Shown here: piece after piece, positions 4,820 to 38,498 of the stretch
Position numbering within the stretch: position 1 is the stretch's first letter
Layout: the number at the start of each line of letters is the position of its first letter
DNA from: Promethearchaeati archaeon SRVP18_Atabeyarchaeia-1
GTDB lineage: Archaea > Asgardarchaeota > Atabeyarchaeia > Atabeyarchaeales > Atabeyarchaeaceae
NCBI GenBank assembly: GCA_037308085.1
Contig: CP147779.1
Coordinates: 864,001 to 928,000 of the forward strand
DNA: 64,000 bases
Direction: 5' to 3'
Position numbers and translations under genes: made by a program
Notes under the pieces: generated by a model
The model's database searches: none
What the model was told of the DNA's origin: nothing
Seen by the model: only the letters and a program-made list of their open reading frames with translations

Positions 4820-4975
4820 CTCTATCGATTCTCATGTGAGGTTCTGTCAAGTCTTCGGTTGAAGGCTTAACTGGCTTGCATCGACTTTCAGGATTGCCTC
4901 CTGCCGCTGTGAGGGTTCCTGCACCATCGCTTCACCTGCAAGTCCCGACGGGCCGAACCGCAGCCCTGCGCTAGC
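4820..4975 (-). ncRNA. Predicted orphan omegaRNA (reRNA) scaffold plus guide
   Basis: Nucleotide conservation with the tnpB 3' end at 35438-35566; TnpB omegaRNAs overlap the 3' end of tnpB and take their guide from the flank; boundaries inferred. Confidence 0.55.
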
Positions 4976-5096
4976 ATCCCGCTCTTATCTCCCCCCGCAT
5001 TCAGCTATGGAAAGCCACATGCCGCGAAAATGAGAGAATGCTTAGACGCCCAGAGTTCTTTCCACCATATAAATCAACCGCAGACTTGATAGAAGC
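4840..5096 (-). mobile_element. MITE-like internal-deletion derivative of a TnpB element that retains the tnpB 3' end / omegaRNA region
   Basis: 4840-~4970 aligns with 35438-~35566 and encodes a tnpB tail (AGLRFGPSGLAGEAMVQEP...DASQLSLQPKT*); 23-bp inverted repeats 4840-4862 and 5074-5096 (20/23 match); direct repeat TCATGTGA at 4832-4839 and 5097-5104. Confidence 0.85.
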
Positions 5097-5104
5097 TCAT
5101 GTGA

Positions 5105-5119
5105 CAAAGGTTTAAAATA
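5105..5119 (+). promoter_or_regulatory. Putative BRE/TATA promoter of cdhAB
   Basis: CAAAGG followed by TTTAAAATA upstream of cdhA. Confidence 0.55.
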
Positions 5120-5166: not shown

Positions 5167-7569
5167 ATGAGATATTATGTCACTCTTGATGATAGAATCT
5201 TGAAGGAGGATAATCATCGAATGGCAAATAAACCTGCGAGGCTTAAGGCCAACGAAATACAGTCTAGTTTTGGTGTCATCAAAGGCTTAGATCTGAGCAT
5301 CGGCAAAATAGTGATGGAAGAGGAAGCTGAATGGGAGCCAATGGGTCCTACTCCCTTCCCTGCGGTTGAAACCTTGCGGTCATGGGATCAGAAGTTGCTG
5401 GCGAGGTACAAGCCTTTCTACACACCGATCTGTGATATGTGTTGCCTTTGCACAATGGGCAAATGTGACCTAACAGCGGGCAAGAAAGGAGCGTGCGGTA
5501 TAAACATAGGCACGCAACAAGCGCGTATGTCCCTGATGGCGGGGCTTATGGGCTGTACGGCTCACCTTGCTCATGCCAGACACCTAACGGAGCATCTTAT
5601 CAAGAAATATGGTCCATCTACTCCCATCTCACTCGGGACTGAAATAGATGTCGAAGCTCCCAACATGAGACTGGTTCTGGGGGTAAAACCGAAGACACTT
5701 GAAGATCTAGAGGAGGGTATATCCTACTGTGAGCGCGAGGTGACTCAACTACTGGCTTCCACTCACACTGGACAAGAAGGTAGTAACCTGGACTATGAGT
5801 CGAAACTTCTCCATGCAGGCATGCTAGATATGGTTGGCATGGAAATCGCAGACATCGCTCAGATATCAGCTTATGGTTTCCCCAAGGGCGCATCTGATGC
5901 TCCTTTGGTCGACTGTGGCATGGGCACAATAGATGCAACAAAACCCATGATTCTATGTGTAGGGCACAACGTCGCATCGGGCGTCGAGATAGCAGATTAC
6001 CTGCGCGCGAATAAGTTGGATGAGAAGGTTGAAGTCGGCGCAATTTGCTGCACGGCACTTGATTTGACAAGATATTACACAAGGGCGAAAGTCGTGGGTC
6101 CCCTCTCTCAGCAATTAAGATTCATAAGGTCGGGCATTGCAGACGTAATAATGACTGATGAGCAATGTGTGAGAACTGATATCCCGGAGGAAGCGCAGAC
6201 TGTCAAGGCACCTGTTATTGCCACCAACGCAAAGATATGTTATGGTTTCCCAGATCGCACAAGCGATCCAGTTGATCAGATAGTGAAAGATGTAGTTTCA
6301 GGGGCTCAAAAAGGTGTGCTTATACTCGACCCGTACAAAGCTGCCGAAGTAGCCGTGAAGGTCGTTGTCAGCATTGCACCTAAGAGAGCCAAGTTCAAAG
6401 CTCTTCCTGATACAAGCAAAATCCCAGAGATCGCTAAGAGTTGCACAGGCTGCCAGAGCTGTCGAAGGGCATGTCCAAATGATCTACACACTGACGAGGC
6501 TGTCCAACTGGCCAAGAAAGGAGACCTTTCCAAGCTGGCTGATCTATACGAGTACTGTATTGGATGCGGAAAGTGTGAGCAAGCCTGCAACAAGGACATA
6601 CCGGTGACAAGCTTGATAACAGTTGCCGCGGAACGAAAGGTGAAAGAAGAGAGATTCAAGCTGCGAAGTGGTCGAGGTCCAGTACGCGACACGGAGATTC
6701 GCAATGTGGGCGCACCGATTGTATTGGGTGAAATACCTGGCATAGTTCTGTTCGCTGGTTGCTCTAACTACCCCAATCACTTGGAAGTCGGCGAAATGGC
6801 GGCAGAGTTCTTAAAACGGGGGTTCATAGTAACAGCTACCGGCTGCTCAGCAATGGACATATCGAGATACAAGACAGAAGAAGGCAAATCGCTCTACGAG
6901 GAATATCCAGGTGACTTCGACAGAGGTTGCTTGTCGAATGTTGGTTCATGCGTGTCTAATGCACACGTCGCTGGCGCGGCCATCAAGGTTGCAAGCATTT
7001 TTGCAAGGAGACCACTGAGAGGGAATTATGAGGAGCTAGCTGATTACGTCTTGAATCGCGTAGGGGCAGTTGGAATCGTGTGGGGAACTTACAGTCAGAA
7101 AGCCGTATCGATTGGGACAGGAGCCAATAGACTTGGCGTTCCGGTAATCCTGGGCCCTCACGGCAGCAAATACAGACGCATGATGGTTGGACGCGCTGAC
7201 AAGGATGACGACTGGTATGTCTACGATGCCAGAACAGGCGACCGAACATATGTAGGACCCGTTCCCGAGCACTTGGTGTACGCTGCTGAATCCAAAGAGG
7301 AAGCTATGATCATGGGCGTAAAACTCTGTCTAAGAGCAAACGACACATTCAAGGGACGAAGTGTCAAGTTGTCTCACTACGTCGACCTAACCAGAAAACT
7401 ACTCGGCAAAGATTATCCAGACGACATTCACAAATTCATTCGCATCGAGTCAGACATCCCACTAGTATACAAGGAAGACTTAACGAAGATACTACAAAGC
7501 AAAGGGTGGAAACCAACAACAATACCCGACCCAACACTCCTGAAAAGACTGGTAAGGACAAGCGAATGA
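5167..7569 (+). CDS. cdhA: CO dehydrogenase/acetyl-CoA synthase complex subunit alpha
   Basis: CDMCCLCTMGKC, HTGQEG, VGHN, ICCTA, two 4Fe-4S motifs, GSCVSN; probable start ATG 5221 after GAAGGAGGA. Confidence 0.96.
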   Translation: MRYYVTLDDRILKEDNHRMANKPARLKANEIQSSFGVIKGLDLSIGKIVMEEEAEWEPMGPTPFPAVETLRSWDQKLLARYKPFYTPICDMCCLCTMGKCDLTAGKKGACGINIGTQQARMSLMAGLMGCTAHLAHARHLTEHLIKKYGPSTPISLGTEIDVEAPNMRLVLGVKPKTLEDLEEGISYCEREVTQLLASTHTGQEGSNLDYESKLLHAGMLDMVGMEIADIAQISAYGFPKGASDAPLVDCGMGTIDATKPMILCVGHNVASGVEIADYLRANKLDEKVEVGAICCTALDLTRYYTRAKVVGPLSQQLRFIRSGIADVIMTDEQCVRTDIPEEAQTVKAPVIATNAKICYGFPDRTSDPVDQIVKDVVSGAQKGVLILDPYKAAEVAVKVVVSIAPKRAKFKALPDTSKIPEIAKSCTGCQSCRRACPNDLHTDEAVQLAKKGDLSKLADLYEYCIGCGKCEQACNKDIPVTSLITVAAERKVKEERFKLRSGRGPVRDTEIRNVGAPIVLGEIPGIVLFAGCSNYPNHLEVGEMAAEFLKRGFIVTATGCSAMDISRYKTEEGKSLYEEYPGDFDRGCLSNVGSCVSNAHVAGAAIKVASIFARRPLRGNYEELADYVLNRVGAVGIVWGTYSQKAVSIGTGANRLGVPVILGPHGSKYRRMMVGRADKDDDWYVYDARTGDRTYVGPVPEHLVYAAESKEEAMIMGVKLCLRANDTFKGRSVKLSHYVDLTRKLLGKDYPDDIHKFIRIESDIPLVYKEDLTKILQSKGWKPTTIPDPTLLKRLVRTSE

Positions 7570-7579
7570 TTAGTAATTA

Positions 7580-8146
7580 GTGAGGTGTAGAATCAAGTTG
7601 TCTAATCGCACAATGCCATGGCAAACCGCAAACGTTCCAGGTCCGAAATTCGCGATGGATCTCAAAGGCGAAGTAGCAGGGAAAATGATCCAGAAAGCAA
7701 AGCGCCCACTCCTAATCGTAGGGATGAATTCTGTCAAGGACGAAGTTGCGGGGCGAAAACTCATAGAGTACGCCATTGAAATGGGAAAGGCGGGAGTCAA
7801 GATAGTAGCTACAGCCCACATGGTGAAGGAGTTCTCTAATCGTGGTTACAAAGTCGATGCAGACATGCCTGTAGTGAACATAACCGACAGATTGAAAGAC
7901 CCAGAATGGAAAGGTATCGATGGGCGTGGCCCCTACGACATAGCAGTCTTCTTGGGCGTCCCTTACTACTTTGAATCACAGATGCTCTCGACATTGAAAA
8001 ACTTCGCCCCGGGTCTTAACACGGTAGCCATCGATGCCCAGTTTCAACCCAATGCCAAGTGGTCATTTCCAAATCTCAAAGGCAAAGACTACGAAGAAGA
8101 GCTAGCAAGCATGATGGCAGCCCTTAGAGAGAAAAAATCCGCATAG
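7580..8146 (+). CDS. cdhB: CODH/ACS complex subunit epsilon
   Basis: KAKRPLLIVG, DPEWKGIDGRGPYD, QPNAKWSFPN; follows cdhA; true start probably 7607-7613. Confidence 0.93.
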   Translation: MRCRIKLSNRTMPWQTANVPGPKFAMDLKGEVAGKMIQKAKRPLLIVGMNSVKDEVAGRKLIEYAIEMGKAGVKIVATAHMVKEFSNRGYKVDADMPVVNITDRLKDPEWKGIDGRGPYDIAVFLGVPYYFESQMLSTLKNFAPGLNTVAIDAQFQPNAKWSFPNLKGKDYEEELASMMAALREKKSA

Positions 8147-33801: not shown

Positions 33802-35187
33802 TTGGACAGCATTAGGCATCTACTTTCGCAGGCGAGCAGCGGGAACGTCGAGCTTGAAATATTCCTGCTGAAGAGGGACCTCATATCTGTGCGCTTCTCT
33901 GGCAACGAAATCGTGGAAGCCCAGAACACATTGGAAGAGGGAACTGGAATTAGACTTGTGAGGGACGGCAGATTAGGGTTTGCGCTTACAAACAACCTGA
34001 GCCCCGACGCGCTTGACAAATCCTTCAGATCTGCTCTTGCTATGGCCAAAACCTCCTCGAAGATACCTAATTGGCATGGCCTACCTCAAGGGCAAGATCA
34101 CGGCGCAGATGCGAACGGAGAGCGGACCCAGGACAATGGCTCGGAGGCCATGACTTCCGAGGAAACAATCAACCGTGCACTGAGAATGATCAAAGAAGTG
34201 ACTTCCAGTAACGGTGACCTTACATTAACAGGTGTCCTGATCACCGTCCATGAAGAATTCTCCATACTAAACTCAAATGGTCTTGATCACCTTCTTGAGC
34301 CCAGCTCAATCATCTATTCCCGCCTAATTCTGGAAACTAGAAGAGGCGAACGCTACTCTAGCATAACAAGCCAGTTCTGCTCGCGTAGATTGTCTGACTT
34401 CAACCCCGAGAAGGAGGTTCACGAAGTCATCTCCTCGGCTTCAAAGCTAGCGAGGCTTCAAAGGATAGAAGTACCAAGAGGAAAACGTGATGTGATCCTG
34501 TCACCTGAATCTGCGGGCGCCTTTACATGCTACCTCATAGGTCCCATGATTACTGGAAAGTCGGTACAGGTTGGGGCATCATGCTTAACGAATATGACTA
34601 ACAAGAGAGTTGCATCGGAATCATTTTCGCTGATCGATAATGGACGGGCACCAGGCGGATTAGCAAGCGCCGAGGTCGATGACGAGGGCACACCCACGCG
34701 GTTAACGAAGGTCGTCGAAAGGGGTGTGCTCAAAACATTCCTGAATGACACCCTTAGTGCAAGCTTGAACGAGACCGACACGACCGCAAATGCCAGGAGA
34801 GCATCAGACACACTCGGAAGAACCTACATGACGCCACCTGAGCCGCTGCCAACAAACCTGATTGTCGAAAAGGGGAATCACAGTCTCGATGAACTCGTCG
34901 AGGCAACGAAGACGGGGATCATAATAAACTCGATCGGATACACCTTTCACCTAGTTCCAGAACTCGGTTACTTCAACATAGTGAGCAACTCCCCTGCACT
35001 AGTTGTCGAGAATGGTAAAATAAAGGGATATGCTCAAAACACAGCCTTTACAGGTAAGCTCGTGGAGACTCTAATGAACATAGATGGAATTGGAAAAGAC
35101 GTTCGGCAATCAGCATCTCTAGGCTCAATGGTCTGCTTTTCTCCTTATCTAAGAATCAGAGATGCCGATGTTGAACGTGCAAAGTAG
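33802..35187 (+). CDS. pmbA: TldE/PmbA partner subunit
   Basis: GIRLVRDGRLGFA, DDEGTPT, no HExxxH; tandem with tldD. Confidence 0.85.
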   Translation: MDSIRHLLSQASSGNVELEIFLLKRDLISVRFSGNEIVEAQNTLEEGTGIRLVRDGRLGFALTNNLSPDALDKSFRSALAMAKTSSKIPNWHGLPQGQDHGADANGERTQDNGSEAMTSEETINRALRMIKEVTSSNGDLTLTGVLITVHEEFSILNSNGLDHLLEPSSIIYSRLILETRRGERYSSITSQFCSRRLSDFNPEKEVHEVISSASKLARLQRIEVPRGKRDVILSPESAGAFTCYLIGPMITGKSVQVGASCLTNMTNKRVASESFSLIDNGRAPGGLASAEVDDEGTPTRLTKVVERGVLKTFLNDTLSASLNETDTTANARRASDTLGRTYMTPPEPLPTNLIVEKGNHSLDELVEATKTGIIINSIGYTFHLVPELGYFNIVSNSPALVVENGKIKGYAQNTAFTGKLVETLMNIDGIGKDVRQSASLGSMVCFSPYLRIRDADVERAK

Positions 35188-35417
35188 AGAGACAAGAAGC
35201 CGGTCTCAGCATAATCGCCTATCGACGCCCAGGTTCGATCGGCCTTCTTTGTGAAGATAGTAAACGAACTTGGTATTTAATGCGTCCCGAACATATGATT
35301 ACTGATTGGCACTATAGGCAAGTCCGAAACAGAGAGAGTAGGATGTGCTCAAGGTCACCCCTTTCTTCGTCTAGTTCCCTTTTCCAGCACTCTTCGGTTC
35401 ACAATTCGCAGTCGATA

Positions 35418-35570
35418 TCGCACCGATTAAATGCTATGGTTCTGTTAACTCTTCGGGTGGTGAGTTAACTGGGTGGCATCTGCTCCGGGGATTACCTTTT
35501 CGCCTCCAGGGTTCCCCTTCACCACTTCACCTGCCACTCCCTTCAGGCTGAACCGCAGCCCTGCACCGAC
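35418..35570 (-). ncRNA. Predicted omegaRNA overlapping the tnpB 3' end; guide 5'-AUAGCAUUUAAUCGGUGCGA
   Basis: Segment conserved with the 4840-4970 copy; conservation stops at ...CAGAACC; boundaries inferred. Confidence 0.6.
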
Positions 35571-36695
35571 AATATTCAAAGCCGCGTTCACGTCCCTGTC
35601 TACGAGCTTCCTGCAGCGTGGACAGTAGACCTTCCTCCCCGCGCATTCGACTATCTTAGAGCCACATATCGCGCAGGTTGAGGAAGTCTTGCTTGGATTA
35701 ACGTAAAACACGTGGATTCCCTCCCAGTGTGCCTTGTAATCTATTTGCCGCTGCAGCTCGGCGTAGCTCCAGCTGTTCATCCTTGCCCTGTAGTCCTTGC
35801 CCTGCCAGTTTCCCCTCCTGTAGAGTTTACGGATGCCTCTAATGTCCTCCGTGACTATGCCGAACTGGTTTTCCTTCGCTTGCTTCACTATCCTTGCTGA
35901 AGTGTTGTGCAGGATCCAGTTTACCTTGTTCTTCTGGATTCTTCCATATTTGGAGTAGAGCTGTCTCTTGACGCGGCAGTCGTCTCGCTTGAAGCCGCGC
36001 TTTGCTTGCCTGCAGTTCTCCTTGACCACGGTCGCCCTCGACAAGTCATACCTCTTCACATCTCCAGCCGAGGACGCAGTGGTTACATTGTCGAGGTTGC
36101 GGTCTACCCCGACTAGCCCCACAGGCTCAACCTGAGCAACCTCTTTCGTGAAGGCTAGTGACACGGCGGAGGCGGTCAAGCAGGCCGAGCGCACAGCACA
36201 CCCCTCAATAGACTGTAATGTGTAGGAGTTCAGGGGGATGTAGATGTATTCTCTTACCCTTACGGGTAGTCTGAGCTCGCCGTTGGTTATCCTGAAGCCG
36301 TAGCAGTCGGTCAGCATGAGCCTTGCTGCATGGGGCTTCTTCATCCTCTGCTGCTTCCCCAGCGCGTGCCTGTGGTTCCGGAGGATGCCCGCGGCCTTGC
36401 TGATCGCCGTCAAGCGGTAGTAGGTTGGCACGTCGTATCCTGCGAGTTGATGGTAAGCCTTCTTTGAGAGCGCCTTCATCGACGTAACATTCTCAGCTAG
36501 GCCAATTCGTATGCAGTCATTCACCATCTCTCTAAACTCGTTCAGGAGGTCGAGTAACTGAGGAGATGGCGTGTAGCTCTGCTTGACCGCCTTGACCGCT
36601 TGCATACCCAAGAAAGAGACTATTTCGGCTAATAAAACCACCATATGACCAAGGGGCTAGCAGCGCCAACTATCACTCGAAGAGTTATCAGAGTG
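35438..36695 (-). mobile_element. TnpB-only element with terminal inverted repeats and an 8-bp target-site duplication
   Basis: Inverted repeats 35438-35459 and 36674-36695 (17/22 match); AATGCTAT at 35430-35437 and 36696-36703; contains tnpB only, no transposase. Confidence 0.8.
35445..36605 (-). CDS. tnpB: RNA-guided endonuclease TnpB (IS605 OrfB / Cas12f-like)
   Basis: RuvC triad intact (GVDRN, TEDI, DRDVNAALNI); Zn ribbon CAIC...CPRC; TTTTATTA at 36637-36630 favours a leaderless start at 36605 over 36644. Confidence 0.93.
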   Translation of the reverse strand: MQAVKAVKQSYTPSPQLLDLLNEFREMVNDCIRIGLAENVTSMKALSKKAYHQLAGYDVPTYYRLTAISKAAGILRNHRHALGKQQRMKKPHAARLMLTDCYGFRITNGELRLPVRVREYIYIPLNSYTLQSIEGCAVRSACLTASAVSLAFTKEVAQVEPVGLVGVDRNLDNVTTASSAGDVKRYDLSRATVVKENCRQAKRGFKRDDCRVKRQLYSKYGRIQKNKVNWILHNTSARIVKQAKENQFGIVTEDIRGIRKLYRRGNWQGKDYRARMNSWSYAELQRQIDYKAHWEGIHVFYVNPSKTSSTCAICGSKIVECAGRKVYCPRCRKLVDRDVNAALNIVGAGLRFSLKGVAGEVVKGNPGGEKVIPGADATQLTHHPKS

Positions 36696-36703
36696 AATGC
36701 TAT

Positions 36704-36716
36704 CAATCTTTATATA
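36704..36716 (+). promoter_or_regulatory. Putative BRE/TATA promoter of the metV-metF operon
   Basis: CAATC followed by TTTATATA upstream of the gene at 36826. Confidence 0.5.
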
Positions 36717-36825
36717 GAGATTTTTCTCTCTTTTCGCACAGATAAGATAATAAATTCGGCACACCGTTCATATTCGTTTAGACTATGATCTAATTCTGCC
36801 TGATGTTCAAGTCTGACCTATATCA

Positions 36826-37518
36826 ATGTATAAGCCCGGAGGTAGAATTCGAGCAATGATAATAACTGAGCAAAAGAAGTTTGAGGAAGTAGTAGAGAAA
36901 CTAGCACCCTTCAAGAAAGTCCTGGTGGTCGGGTGTGGACACTGTGCGACGGTCTGCCAGACTGGCGGGGAAGACCAAGCCAAGGCTATGGTGTCAAAGC
37001 TCAAGGAATCAAAAGGCCCAACAGGAATGATGGTGAACATGGCGGTCGTCGAAGAACCTTGTGACATAAGAATCCTGAAGCGGGACATGAAGAAGGCGAA
37101 GAAGGAATTCGACGAAGCAGATGCAATTTTGGCAATGGCATGTGGAGTTGGGAGCCAGACGCTCGCGACGGTAGTCAACAAGCCGGTTGTTCCAGCGCTA
37201 AACACTCTGTTCCTAGGGCAAGTTGAGAGAATTGGTAAGTTTGAGGAGATGTGCCGCGCTTGTGGGAATTGTATTCTCGCTGATACTGGCGGTGTCTGCC
37301 CTATTACTCGTTGCGCAAAGGGATTAATGAACGGTCCGTGTGGTGGCATGAGTAAGGGGAAATGCGAGGTAAACAACTACACCAAGGACTGTGGTTGGGT
37401 TCTGATCTACAATAGGCTGAAAGACCAAGGAAGGCTCGACCTATTCAGACAGTACAGGCCACCAAGAGACTACGCTCTATCAGGCTATCCAAGGAGCGTG
37501 GATACTCGAGCAACCTGA
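36826..37518 (+). CDS. MetV-like (MTHFR C-terminal domain) Fe-S protein
   Basis: GCGHCATVCQTGG, ACGVG, CRACGNC...GGVCPITRCAKGLMNGPCGG; probable start 36856. Confidence 0.9.
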   Translation: MYKPGGRIRAMIITEQKKFEEVVEKLAPFKKVLVVGCGHCATVCQTGGEDQAKAMVSKLKESKGPTGMMVNMAVVEEPCDIRILKRDMKKAKKEFDEADAILAMACGVGSQTLATVVNKPVVPALNTLFLGQVERIGKFEEMCRACGNCILADTGGVCPITRCAKGLMNGPCGGMSKGKCEVNNYTKDCGWVLIYNRLKDQGRLDLFRQYRPPRDYALSGYPRSVDTRAT

Positions 37519-37571
37519 GCAAAATCAGAGAGAGACCAGAGCCACAATATCATGCTAGAGGTGAGCGAATA

Positions 37572-38498
37572 ATGGTACAAGCTTATAGTAGCCTTATGAA
37601 GGAAATAGTCAAGGGGAAGTTTGTCTATACTGGCGAATTGGAACCAGAGAAGACAACAGATATGACCCAAGTAATAAGTGATGCGAAAGAACTGAGTGGA
37701 TACGCTGTAGCCTGTAATGTTACTGACAACCCGAAATCATGTGGCTACCTTAGTAGCCTTGCGGCCTCATATATAGTTCAACGCGATGCAAATATGGAGG
37801 CTGTCTACCAGCTGACTTGTCGGGACAGAAACAGGCTAGCATTGATCTCTGACCTGCTTGGAGCGGGGGCGCTCGGAATTCATAACGTTCTAGCTCTCAC
37901 AGGCGACCACACGATGGTAGGTGACAATCCTGCCTCTAAACCCGTGTTCGATCTTGACTCAGCGCACCTGACATCTCTCATAAAAATGATGTCCGAAAAG
38001 GAAGTGGATCTAGCGGGCAGCAAGATTGAGAATCCTCCTAAGATAAACGTCGGGGTTGCAGCAAATCCAAACGCGGATCCACTTGAGCCAGAACTCCTTA
38101 AGCTTGAGAGAAAGGCAAAGGCAGGAGCAGACTTCGTCCAAACGCAAGTTGTCTTTGACATCGAGAAAGCAAAGGGTTTCTTGAGAGAAGCGTCTTCGTT
38201 CAACGTTCCATTGCTGATAGGAATATTCCCACTGAAGAACTTCGGAATAGCGGACTTCTTCAACAAGAACGTCCCTGGCTGCTCGGTCCCATCCGAGATC
38301 TTGGACAGACTGAAGCAAATGAAGGAGAGCATCCAAGACAAGGAAGAAAGAAAGAGAAAGATAGACGAGATGAACGTAGAATACTTCACCGACTTCATTA
38401 AGGAGCTCAAGAAGACAAAGGGTTGCAGAGGCGTCCACGTAATGGCTGTCGGCTACGCAAGCGTGACCAAACAATTAATAGACCGAGTAGGGCACTAG
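37572..38498 (+). CDS. metF: Methylenetetrahydrofolate reductase
   Basis: TGELEP, VTDN, CRDRNRLAL, LTGDH, DLDS, AGADFVQTQ. Confidence 0.9.
   Translation: MVQAYSSLMKEIVKGKFVYTGELEPEKTTDMTQVISDAKELSGYAVACNVTDNPKSCGYLSSLAASYIVQRDANMEAVYQLTCRDRNRLALISDLLGAGALGIHNVLALTGDHTMVGDNPASKPVFDLDSAHLTSLIKMMSEKEVDLAGSKIENPPKINVGVAANPNADPLEPELLKLERKAKAGADFVQTQVVFDIEKAKGFLREASSFNVPLLIGIFPLKNFGIADFFNKNVPGCSVPSEILDRLKQMKESIQDKEERKRKIDEMNVEYFTDFIKELKKTKGCRGVHVMAVGYASVTKQLIDRVGH

Follow-up and report, generated by a model that had tools for sequence, protein, structure and literature searches.

Two insertions of one TnpB-type element family lie within the 64,000-nt stretch of DNA analysed here (the window), each directly beside a TATA-like box upstream of a host operon. 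Across the genome, the adjacency of this element family to TATA boxes is beyond chance. It is probably explained, in our judgement and with moderate confidence, by a landing preference of the transposition machinery combined with a one-sided TAM filter. Under this explanation the adjacency would follow from the choice of landing site and not from regulation of the neighbouring operons.

Direct reading of the plus strand gives AATGCTAT-CAA-TC-TTTATATA at 36696-36716 and TCATGTGA-CAA-AGG-TTTAAAATA at 5097-5119, and the base-level layout given for both sites in an earlier note on this DNA is exact. The note had also described the elements as directed away from their host operons, and the sequence confirms this orientation for both. 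Element 1 (35438..36695, minus strand) is a 1258-bp tnpB-only unit with terminal inverted repeats of ~22 nt. Its boundaries were established from four aligned genomic copies and from the empty sites in two relatives, G002 (a complete genome from the same family) and G001 (a genome of the same genus). Its 8-bp target duplication, AATGCTAT on the plus strand, is present at 36696..36703 on the left-end side and a second time at 35430-35437 on the right-end side, and a TAM-like TTG on the minus strand (CAA on the plus strand) follows at 36704..36706, in the BRE position of the metV promoter.

Element 2 (4840..5096, minus strand) is a 257-bp miniature that consists of a left end, a TATA-like box, an omegaRNA scaffold and a right end, and is one of seven guide-RNA-only miniatures in the genome. 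No tnpB ORF is present in 4840-5096, and the homology to element 1 covers only the last ~190 bp of tnpB and the ends. Thus, of the claim that both TnpB-family insertions abut a host TATA box, the adjacency stood, but the description of the second as a tnpB-bearing insertion did not. The target duplication TCATGTGA is found at the right end (4832..4839), where it supplies the initial 8 nt of the predicted guide, and at the left end (5097..5104); it measures 9 nt when C5096/C4831 are included and 8 nt otherwise. The TAM-like TTG on the minus strand (CAA on the plus strand, 5105..5107) is the start of a CAAAG BRE-like element.

Alignment of four close genomic copies defined the ~22-nt terminal inverted repeats as (N2)CTCTGTTAACTCTTCGGGTGA on the left and TCACCCGAAGAGTTAACAGAACC on the right. 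In each of the four, an 8-nt repeat particular to that copy flanks the ends, and on the left-end side TTG comes before it. A sister family, ~35% identical at the protein level, is built in the same way but has TTA in place of TTG. In contigs of four public runs over 35150-37150, both junctions of element 1 are covered by contigs of an independent study, but none of the contigs joins across the element or shows an empty allele.

The operon downstream of element 1 comprises metV (DUF5981) and metF (MTHFR), assigned by Pfam matches (36856..38498, plus strand), with a conserved metV ATG at 36856; both this start and a GGAGG motif are seen in the alignment with relatives. The second operon contains cdhA and cdhB, which encode the alpha and epsilon subunits of CO dehydrogenase/acetyl-CoA synthase (Pfam Prismane and CO_dh; 5221..8146, plus strand), and its cdhA ATG at 5221 is preceded by GGAGG. 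The TATA-like box upstream of metV-metF, TTTATATA (36709..36716, plus strand), is conserved in G001 and G002, and the one upstream of cdhA, TTTAAAATA (5111..5119, plus strand), is identical in both relatives. In this genome the 8-mers most enriched in upstream regions are CTTAAATA (10-fold), TTAAATAG and CTTATATA. Both boxes agree with the TATA consensus of the genome (CTTAAATA, CTTATATA) and persist in the relatives.

A weak C-R-A-A-A signal is found genome-wide at positions -7 to -3 upstream of TATA-like boxes. The statement that the TAM occupies the BRE position agrees with this signal: CAA coincides with it exactly for cdhA (CAAAG-GT-TTAAAATA) and with a shift of 2 nt for metV. The duplication preserves 13 nt upstream of each TATA box in the pre-insertion form, so the BRE position is unchanged. 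For the annotation of the genome, the core promoters of cdh and metVF are intact but severed from their former further-upstream sequence. A second A/T-rich block, GATAAGATAATAAATTC at 36742-36759, lies downstream of the flagged TATA box and is conserved in all three genomes; it may be the actual metV promoter or a leader element.

At both loci G002 has an uninterrupted intergenic region with a single copy of each duplicated 8-mer and nothing inserted. The site is likewise empty in G001 at the metV and the cdhA promoter junction, the upstream flank at cdhA being arranged differently. Both TATA-like boxes are kept at the empty sites of the two relatives. We therefore regard the repeats as true target duplications, the insertions as recent and lineage-specific, and the TATA boxes as belonging to the host. 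An origin of the TATA box and the TTG from the element itself is ruled out by the same empty sites.

The sole gene of element 1 is tnpB (35445..36644, minus strand; 399 aa from the first ATG), identified by Pfam and by motifs. Its product matches Pfam PF07282 (Cas12f1-like_TNB) at 1.9e-20, and phmmer aligns it to solved TnpB and Cas12f chains with a best value of 1.2e-11. It contains the GVDRN, TEDI and DRDVNAA (DRDVNAALNI) motifs and a CxxC...CxxC zinc finger. In an alignment to a solved chain the E and the final D match their equivalents, and the first D was judged from its motif alone; on this footing the D-E-D catalytic triad appears complete and the nuclease looks catalytically intact. 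The true start is probably the second ATG at 36605 (MQAVKAV), where the homology with the sister family begins, and the TATA-like TTTTATTAG ~27 nt upstream of it suggests a leaderless transcript.

A locus search for sequences related to this TnpB returned one locus only, and in a search of 400 genomes of the phylum this TnpB subfamily was confined to the window's own family. TnpB copies of ~25% identity elsewhere in the genome have different ends. A 1308-bp TnpB element in G001 (L023, G001:C62:6991-8298) carries the right-end (guide-RNA hairpin) signature at both ends; its 8-bp duplication, TTCTAATC, is perfect, and one of its sides has TTG. Two close TnpB relatives (L017 and L042, 72-73% identity) have ATG instead of TTG beside the left-end duplication, so the TAM may be WTG in part of the family.

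The predicted omegaRNA scaffold (35438..35680, minus strand) lies inside the 3' end of tnpB and was delimited by conservation in full copies and miniatures; it ends at the right end of the element, 7 nt past the tnpB stop codon. Scaffold-like sequence is conserved in 13 copies, miniatures among them, and its terminal hairpin shows compensatory changes. Rfam gave zero matches within the window at the gathering threshold. By the geometry common to all copies, the predicted guide is the flank that adjoins the right end (35418..35437, minus strand), which in element 1 opens with one of the two 8-nt copies of the duplication (35430-35437). One run, labelled metatranscriptomic but probably DNA, yielded a 216-nt contig that is limited to 35462-35677, within the predicted scaffold, and shows no differences; this contig could reflect a stable small RNA or an assembly break at a repeat boundary.

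The ends of the elements read GGTTCTGTTA(A/C)C, start with GG and are flanked by an 8-bp duplication, as in the IS6 family. Only two DDE_Tnp_IS240 (PF13610) genes were found in the genome, and both are enclosed by the ends that also bound the TnpB elements. One belongs to a 6.5-kb unit (L015, G000:C1:549276-555829) that carries a 383-aa SWIM-finger DDE_Tnp_IS240 transposase, encoded at genome 549896-551047, together with an Eco57I-like type IIG restriction-modification gene and is flanked by the duplication TGGAGAAC. The other, a shorter DDE_Tnp_IS240 gene, is accompanied by an HxlR-like regulator in a 4.4-kb unit (L016, G000:C1:614149-618567). Each of the two units has its own 8-bp duplication, and both lie a few nt from a TATA-like tract. 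The TnpB elements themselves encode no DDE_Tnp_IS240 transposase, which is present in trans only, and the three Y1 TnpA genes of the genome are located elsewhere. Six checked metagenome elements of 3-5.7 kb with these ends encode homologues of the transposase (30-66% identity). On the strength of the ends and the duplication that they share with the IS240 units, the TnpB elements look like non-autonomous passengers on IS6-like ends. An assignment to IS200/IS605, including the IS1341 group, is ruled out by the ~22-nt inverted repeats and the 8-bp duplication.

A fuzzy inverted-repeat scan of the genome found 28 left-end junctions, which divide into a TTG type (17) and a TTA type (11). In 15 of the former, TTG adjoins the duplication; the sequence at the right-end side is random. 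The TAM-like motif is one-sided, restricted to the left-end flank, and in the sister family it is mostly TTA. By criteria set after inspection of the data, eight of these 17 are positive, with an A/T run of at least 7 nt that stops 1-3 nt short of the TAM (gaps of 1, 1, 1, 2, 2, 2, 2 and 3 nt). The remaining nine have no A/T run within 30 nt, which makes the distribution bimodal. A TAM with a long fixed sequence was ruled out, since positions -4 and -5 vary and these 9 of 17 copies are without an A/T run.

As the null we took 14,661 intergenic TTG sites. An A/T run lies within 5 nt of 3.9% of them and within 3 nt of 2.7%, and the corresponding binomial p values under the post hoc criteria are 9e-8 and 6e-9. 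A grid of 12 run-length/gap definitions, run to offset the post hoc choice, gave p values from 6e-9 to 8e-5. In terms of occupancy, insertions were found at 8 of ~272 intergenic TATA-N1-3-TTG sites versus 9 of ~14,400 other intergenic TTG sites, and the excess over intergenic TTG sites is 12- to 20-fold. The earlier note had proposed to compare TATA distances for all copies against intergenic TTG sites. With 8/17 TTG-type copies against ~4% of such sites, the adjacency is enriched, and its alternative of an AT-rich intergenic bias proved too weak for a spacing of 1-3 nt. No enrichment was seen at the right-end sides (1/12) or in the TTA family (1/11 on each side).

All 17 TTG-type junctions lie outside genes or at a gene edge, and in six of the eight positive cases the site looks onto a divergent host gene no more than 150 nt away. 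The statistical part of the proposal that insertion is directed to promoters is borne out: the frequency is far above the intergenic TTG expectation and the boxes mostly face a divergent gene. TTG is found 1-3 nt from mixed A/T runs at 9.1% versus 4.7% naively expected, a ~2x excess that fits the BRE-like CAA and helps to account for the orientation of the left end towards the promoter. The genes next to the other promoter-side copies encode a DtxR/FeoA regulator, GrpE, NAD kinase, TrkA, a solute-binding protein and an acyl-CoA dehydrogenase; a specificity for C1 metabolism was ruled out, as the checked neighbour genes are functionally unrelated.

An independent set was assembled from relatives and from a metagenome scan for the end motif, and comprised 21 distinct insertions with these ends. 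Perfect 8/8 duplications were found in 16 of these 21 insertions from relatives and metagenomes, or in 16 of 22 when the pairs are counted as tabulated. In 8 of the 21 insertions an A/T run of at least 7 nt lies within 5 nt of the trinucleotide flanking the duplication on at least one side. The expectation is 2.2 from noncoding positions of the same contigs, a null drawn from little sequence (P ~3e-4), and 1.3 from all positions. Four of the eight positive insertions are without a guide-RNA signature, and three of these are confirmed transposase carriers. The left-end trinucleotide in this set is TTG, ATG or TTA; the right-end one is random.

The A/T profile over 93 sides has a peak at positions -10 to -6 (0.67-0.75), a dip at -5 (0.44) and a rise at -3 and -2, and it is similar on both sides of the duplication, transposase-only elements included. 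Such a position-specific and roughly symmetric signal points to the transposition machinery, and a one-sided trinucleotide is the pattern expected of a TAM filter imposed by TnpB. The left-end-specific excess had no clear replication outside this genome (1/6 TTG-type copies). Since the search of 400 genomes found the TnpB subfamily only in the window's family, the TTG-type replicate set amounts to six copies with one positive, and the left-end-specific excess thus rests on one genome. Contigs from soil metagenomes contain ~390-bp miniatures with the same ends (L045, L046, L060, L067, L099 and L108), which have a guide-RNA-like right end and mostly perfect 8-bp duplications; this end type is therefore widespread beyond Asgard archaea.

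In the explanation that we prefer, element 1 (tnpB and omegaRNA) and element 2 (omegaRNA only) would be passengers whose IS6-like DDE transposase is supplied from elsewhere in the genome. The IS6-like machinery would produce the 8-bp duplication and favour an A/T-rich, TATA-like tract ~4-6 bp outside it; in a genome of 50% GC, such tracts would mostly be core promoters. Insertions would persist only where TTG lies directly beside the duplication on the left-end side. We infer that this filter acts through homing, in which TnpB would cut unoccupied copies and so drive repair that draws on the filled one. Since CAA, the reverse complement of TTG, is similar to the first bases of the local BRE, the left end would come to face the promoter. 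With BRE and TATA box kept intact by the duplication, the insertion would presumably be tolerated. Several observations count against this explanation. The left-end-specific excess lacks clear replication outside this genome, the sister family with a TTA TAM, which presumably uses the same transposase, is TATA-adjacent in only 1 of 11 cases, and the bimodal spacing fits a discrete recognition of promoters better than a graded sequence preference.

That spacing is an argument for integration directed by host factors, where TBP/TFB at the core promoter, or histone-free promoter DNA, recruits the transposase or transpososome and so holds the insertion point at a constant spacing upstream of the BRE and the TATA box. 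Ty3 integrates in a comparable manner at TFIIIB-bound sites in yeast. The spacing is indeed tight, with gaps of 1-3 nt or nothing within 30 nt. The adjacent boxes correspond to the promoter consensus of the genome and not to oligo-T terminators, they are conserved at the empty sites, and 6/8 face a divergent gene start within 150 nt. However, about half of the copies are distant from any TATA-like tract and the TTA-type family shows no enrichment. The signal, moreover, occurs on either side of the duplication and is roughly symmetric, as for a transposase dimer that reads DNA shape. On balance we consider direction by host factors possible but not likely.

A bolder version, which we regard as doubtful, has the family tethered to TBP/TFB on BRE/TATA, with a TAM that evolved as the complement of the BRE start and an RNP that competes with TFB. 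If it were true, every promoter would offer safe landing and, while empty, a target for cleavage; the family would then parallel Ty3/TFIIIB targeting in a prokaryote and might mark a step towards regulators of the TldR type.

The earlier note had asked whether binding through the seed only could regulate the two operons: TnpB with its own omegaRNA would bind the TAM and the 8-9 nt of the left-end duplication with no cleavage, occupy the BRE and modulate metVF and cdh. Both premises are sound. By sequence, the TAM and the guide match persist at the filled site, 8 nt in element 1 and 9 nt in element 2, and overlap the BRE position; the TnpB looks catalytically intact and its scaffold is conserved. 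ISDge10 TnpB with a 10-nt guide engages DNA with no cutting, and reporter activation over a guide range of 8-20 nt was maximal at 10 nt (PMC13507860), and natural oppF-type TldRs use 9-11-nt guides on promoter elements (doi 10.1101/2023.11.30.569447), so that short guides can bind without cutting. Yet 8 nt is shorter than the lengths shown to work. A match of this kind arises automatically at the filled site of any duplication-making TnpB element, and selection is not needed for its presence. Matches of TAM+8 occur elsewhere in the genome, with 1-3 further ones per guide, and older TATA-adjacent copies have mismatches in the repeat (e.g. position 4 at genome 1809377). The neighbouring genes are functionally unrelated with no C1 bias, the nuclease is not inactivated, unlike in TldRs, and the insertions are missing from the nearest relatives, G001 and G002. 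The regulatory geometry thus looks like a by-product of insertion, and we consider regulation of these operons unlikely.

An assignment of this TnpB to the TldRs was rejected, as its nuclease motifs are intact, it has only the 8-9-nt duplication matches and it is not conserved across relatives. The guide of element 1 also has a TTG with a 10-nt match within a coding region (G000:C1:812566, minus strand); ~0.08 such matches are expected by chance, and this one is better than the left-end junction itself.

Random insertion, with survivors retained in harmless A/T-rich intergenic DNA upstream of promoters, would need no targeting at all. It would agree with the location of all 17 junctions outside genes or at their edge, and insertion downstream of a TATA box would break expression and thereby enrich survivors upstream. 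The null, however, was already restricted to intergenic TTG sites; dropping the sites downstream of promoters at most approximately doubles the 3-4% expectation, against 47% observed, and a spacing of 1-3 nt is not predicted. We judge such an origin improbable. We give very little credence to promoter capture, in which the host TATA box is needed for transcription of tnpB and omegaRNA and a box 1-3 nt before the TAM sets a start site ~10 nt inside the left end: TATA plus ~24 nt does fall within the left end and several adjacent boxes read in the direction of the element, but capture does not require the narrow spacing and was set aside as unnecessary, all families having a left-end TATA-like box of their own (family A, CTTTATTAG ~27 nt before the second ATG; family B, TTTAAATA; miniatures, TTTATAT).

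Most work on TnpB concerns IS200/IS605 elements, whose insertion does not duplicate the target. In the present family the duplication supplies the first half of the guide, and roughly every second copy has its TAM on the BRE of a host promoter. As in the IS6 family (IS26, IS240 and archaeal members), the inverted ends start with GG, the target duplication is 8 bp and the autonomous relatives encode a DDE_Tnp_IS240 transposase. Classical IS6 elements are ~0.8 kb in length; in contrast, the autonomous relatives found here measure 3-6.5 kb and carry cargo such as the Eco57I-like restriction-modification gene. We know of no reported target preference for classical IS6 elements. In eukaryotes, promoter-targeted integration is represented by Ty3 at TFIIIB sites and by Tf1 at Pol II promoters. 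Their insertions likewise keep a narrowly defined spacing to core promoter elements and leave the gene unharmed, but the symmetric A/T signal of the present family suggests recognition at the level of DNA.

Among TnpB carriers, the closest comparison by ends is the IS630-linked DDE-6 branch, which has symmetric ends (Altae-Tran et al. 2023, PNAS, PMC10691335). That DDE-associated TnpB likewise resides in an element of the cut-and-paste type with symmetric inverted ends, and not in IS200/IS605 or IS607. The present elements differ from it in their IS6-like ends with an 8-bp duplication (DDE_Tnp_IS240), in a transposase that is never part of the same element and in a landing biased to TATA boxes. 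A 2026 review describes prokaryotic TnpB carriers as being without inverted repeats and duplications (PMC13565253). In Fanzor1 of eukaryotic DDE transposons the target duplication is likewise part of the TAM/guide geometry, its 5' copy being read as part of the TAM and its 3' copy lying in the scaffold (PMC13565253); here, in contrast, the TAM is outside the duplication, and the duplication is the first 8 nt of the guide. Element 2 resembles the PATEs of IS200/IS605 (Meers et al. 2023, doi 10.1101/2023.03.14.532601) in that it keeps the ends and the guide-RNA scaffold and has lost the nuclease gene, but it has inverted repeats and a duplication in place of the IS200/IS605 hairpin ends.

In TldRs, too, a TnpB-type RNP combines a short guide match with a TAM on a promoter (Wiegand et al., doi 10.1101/2023.11.30.569447). 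TldRs are nuclease-dead and immobile and have conserved host targets, whereas this TnpB retains catalytic motifs, is mobile and owes its match to insertion. DDE-borne TnpB, guide-RNA miniatures and insertion at promoter edges are each of a kind already known. The family offers a testable case in which the landing-site choice of a transposase is coupled to the TAM requirement of a nuclease, and shows how a mobile RNA-guided nuclease could reach a promoter with a short guide match, a possible origin of TldRs.
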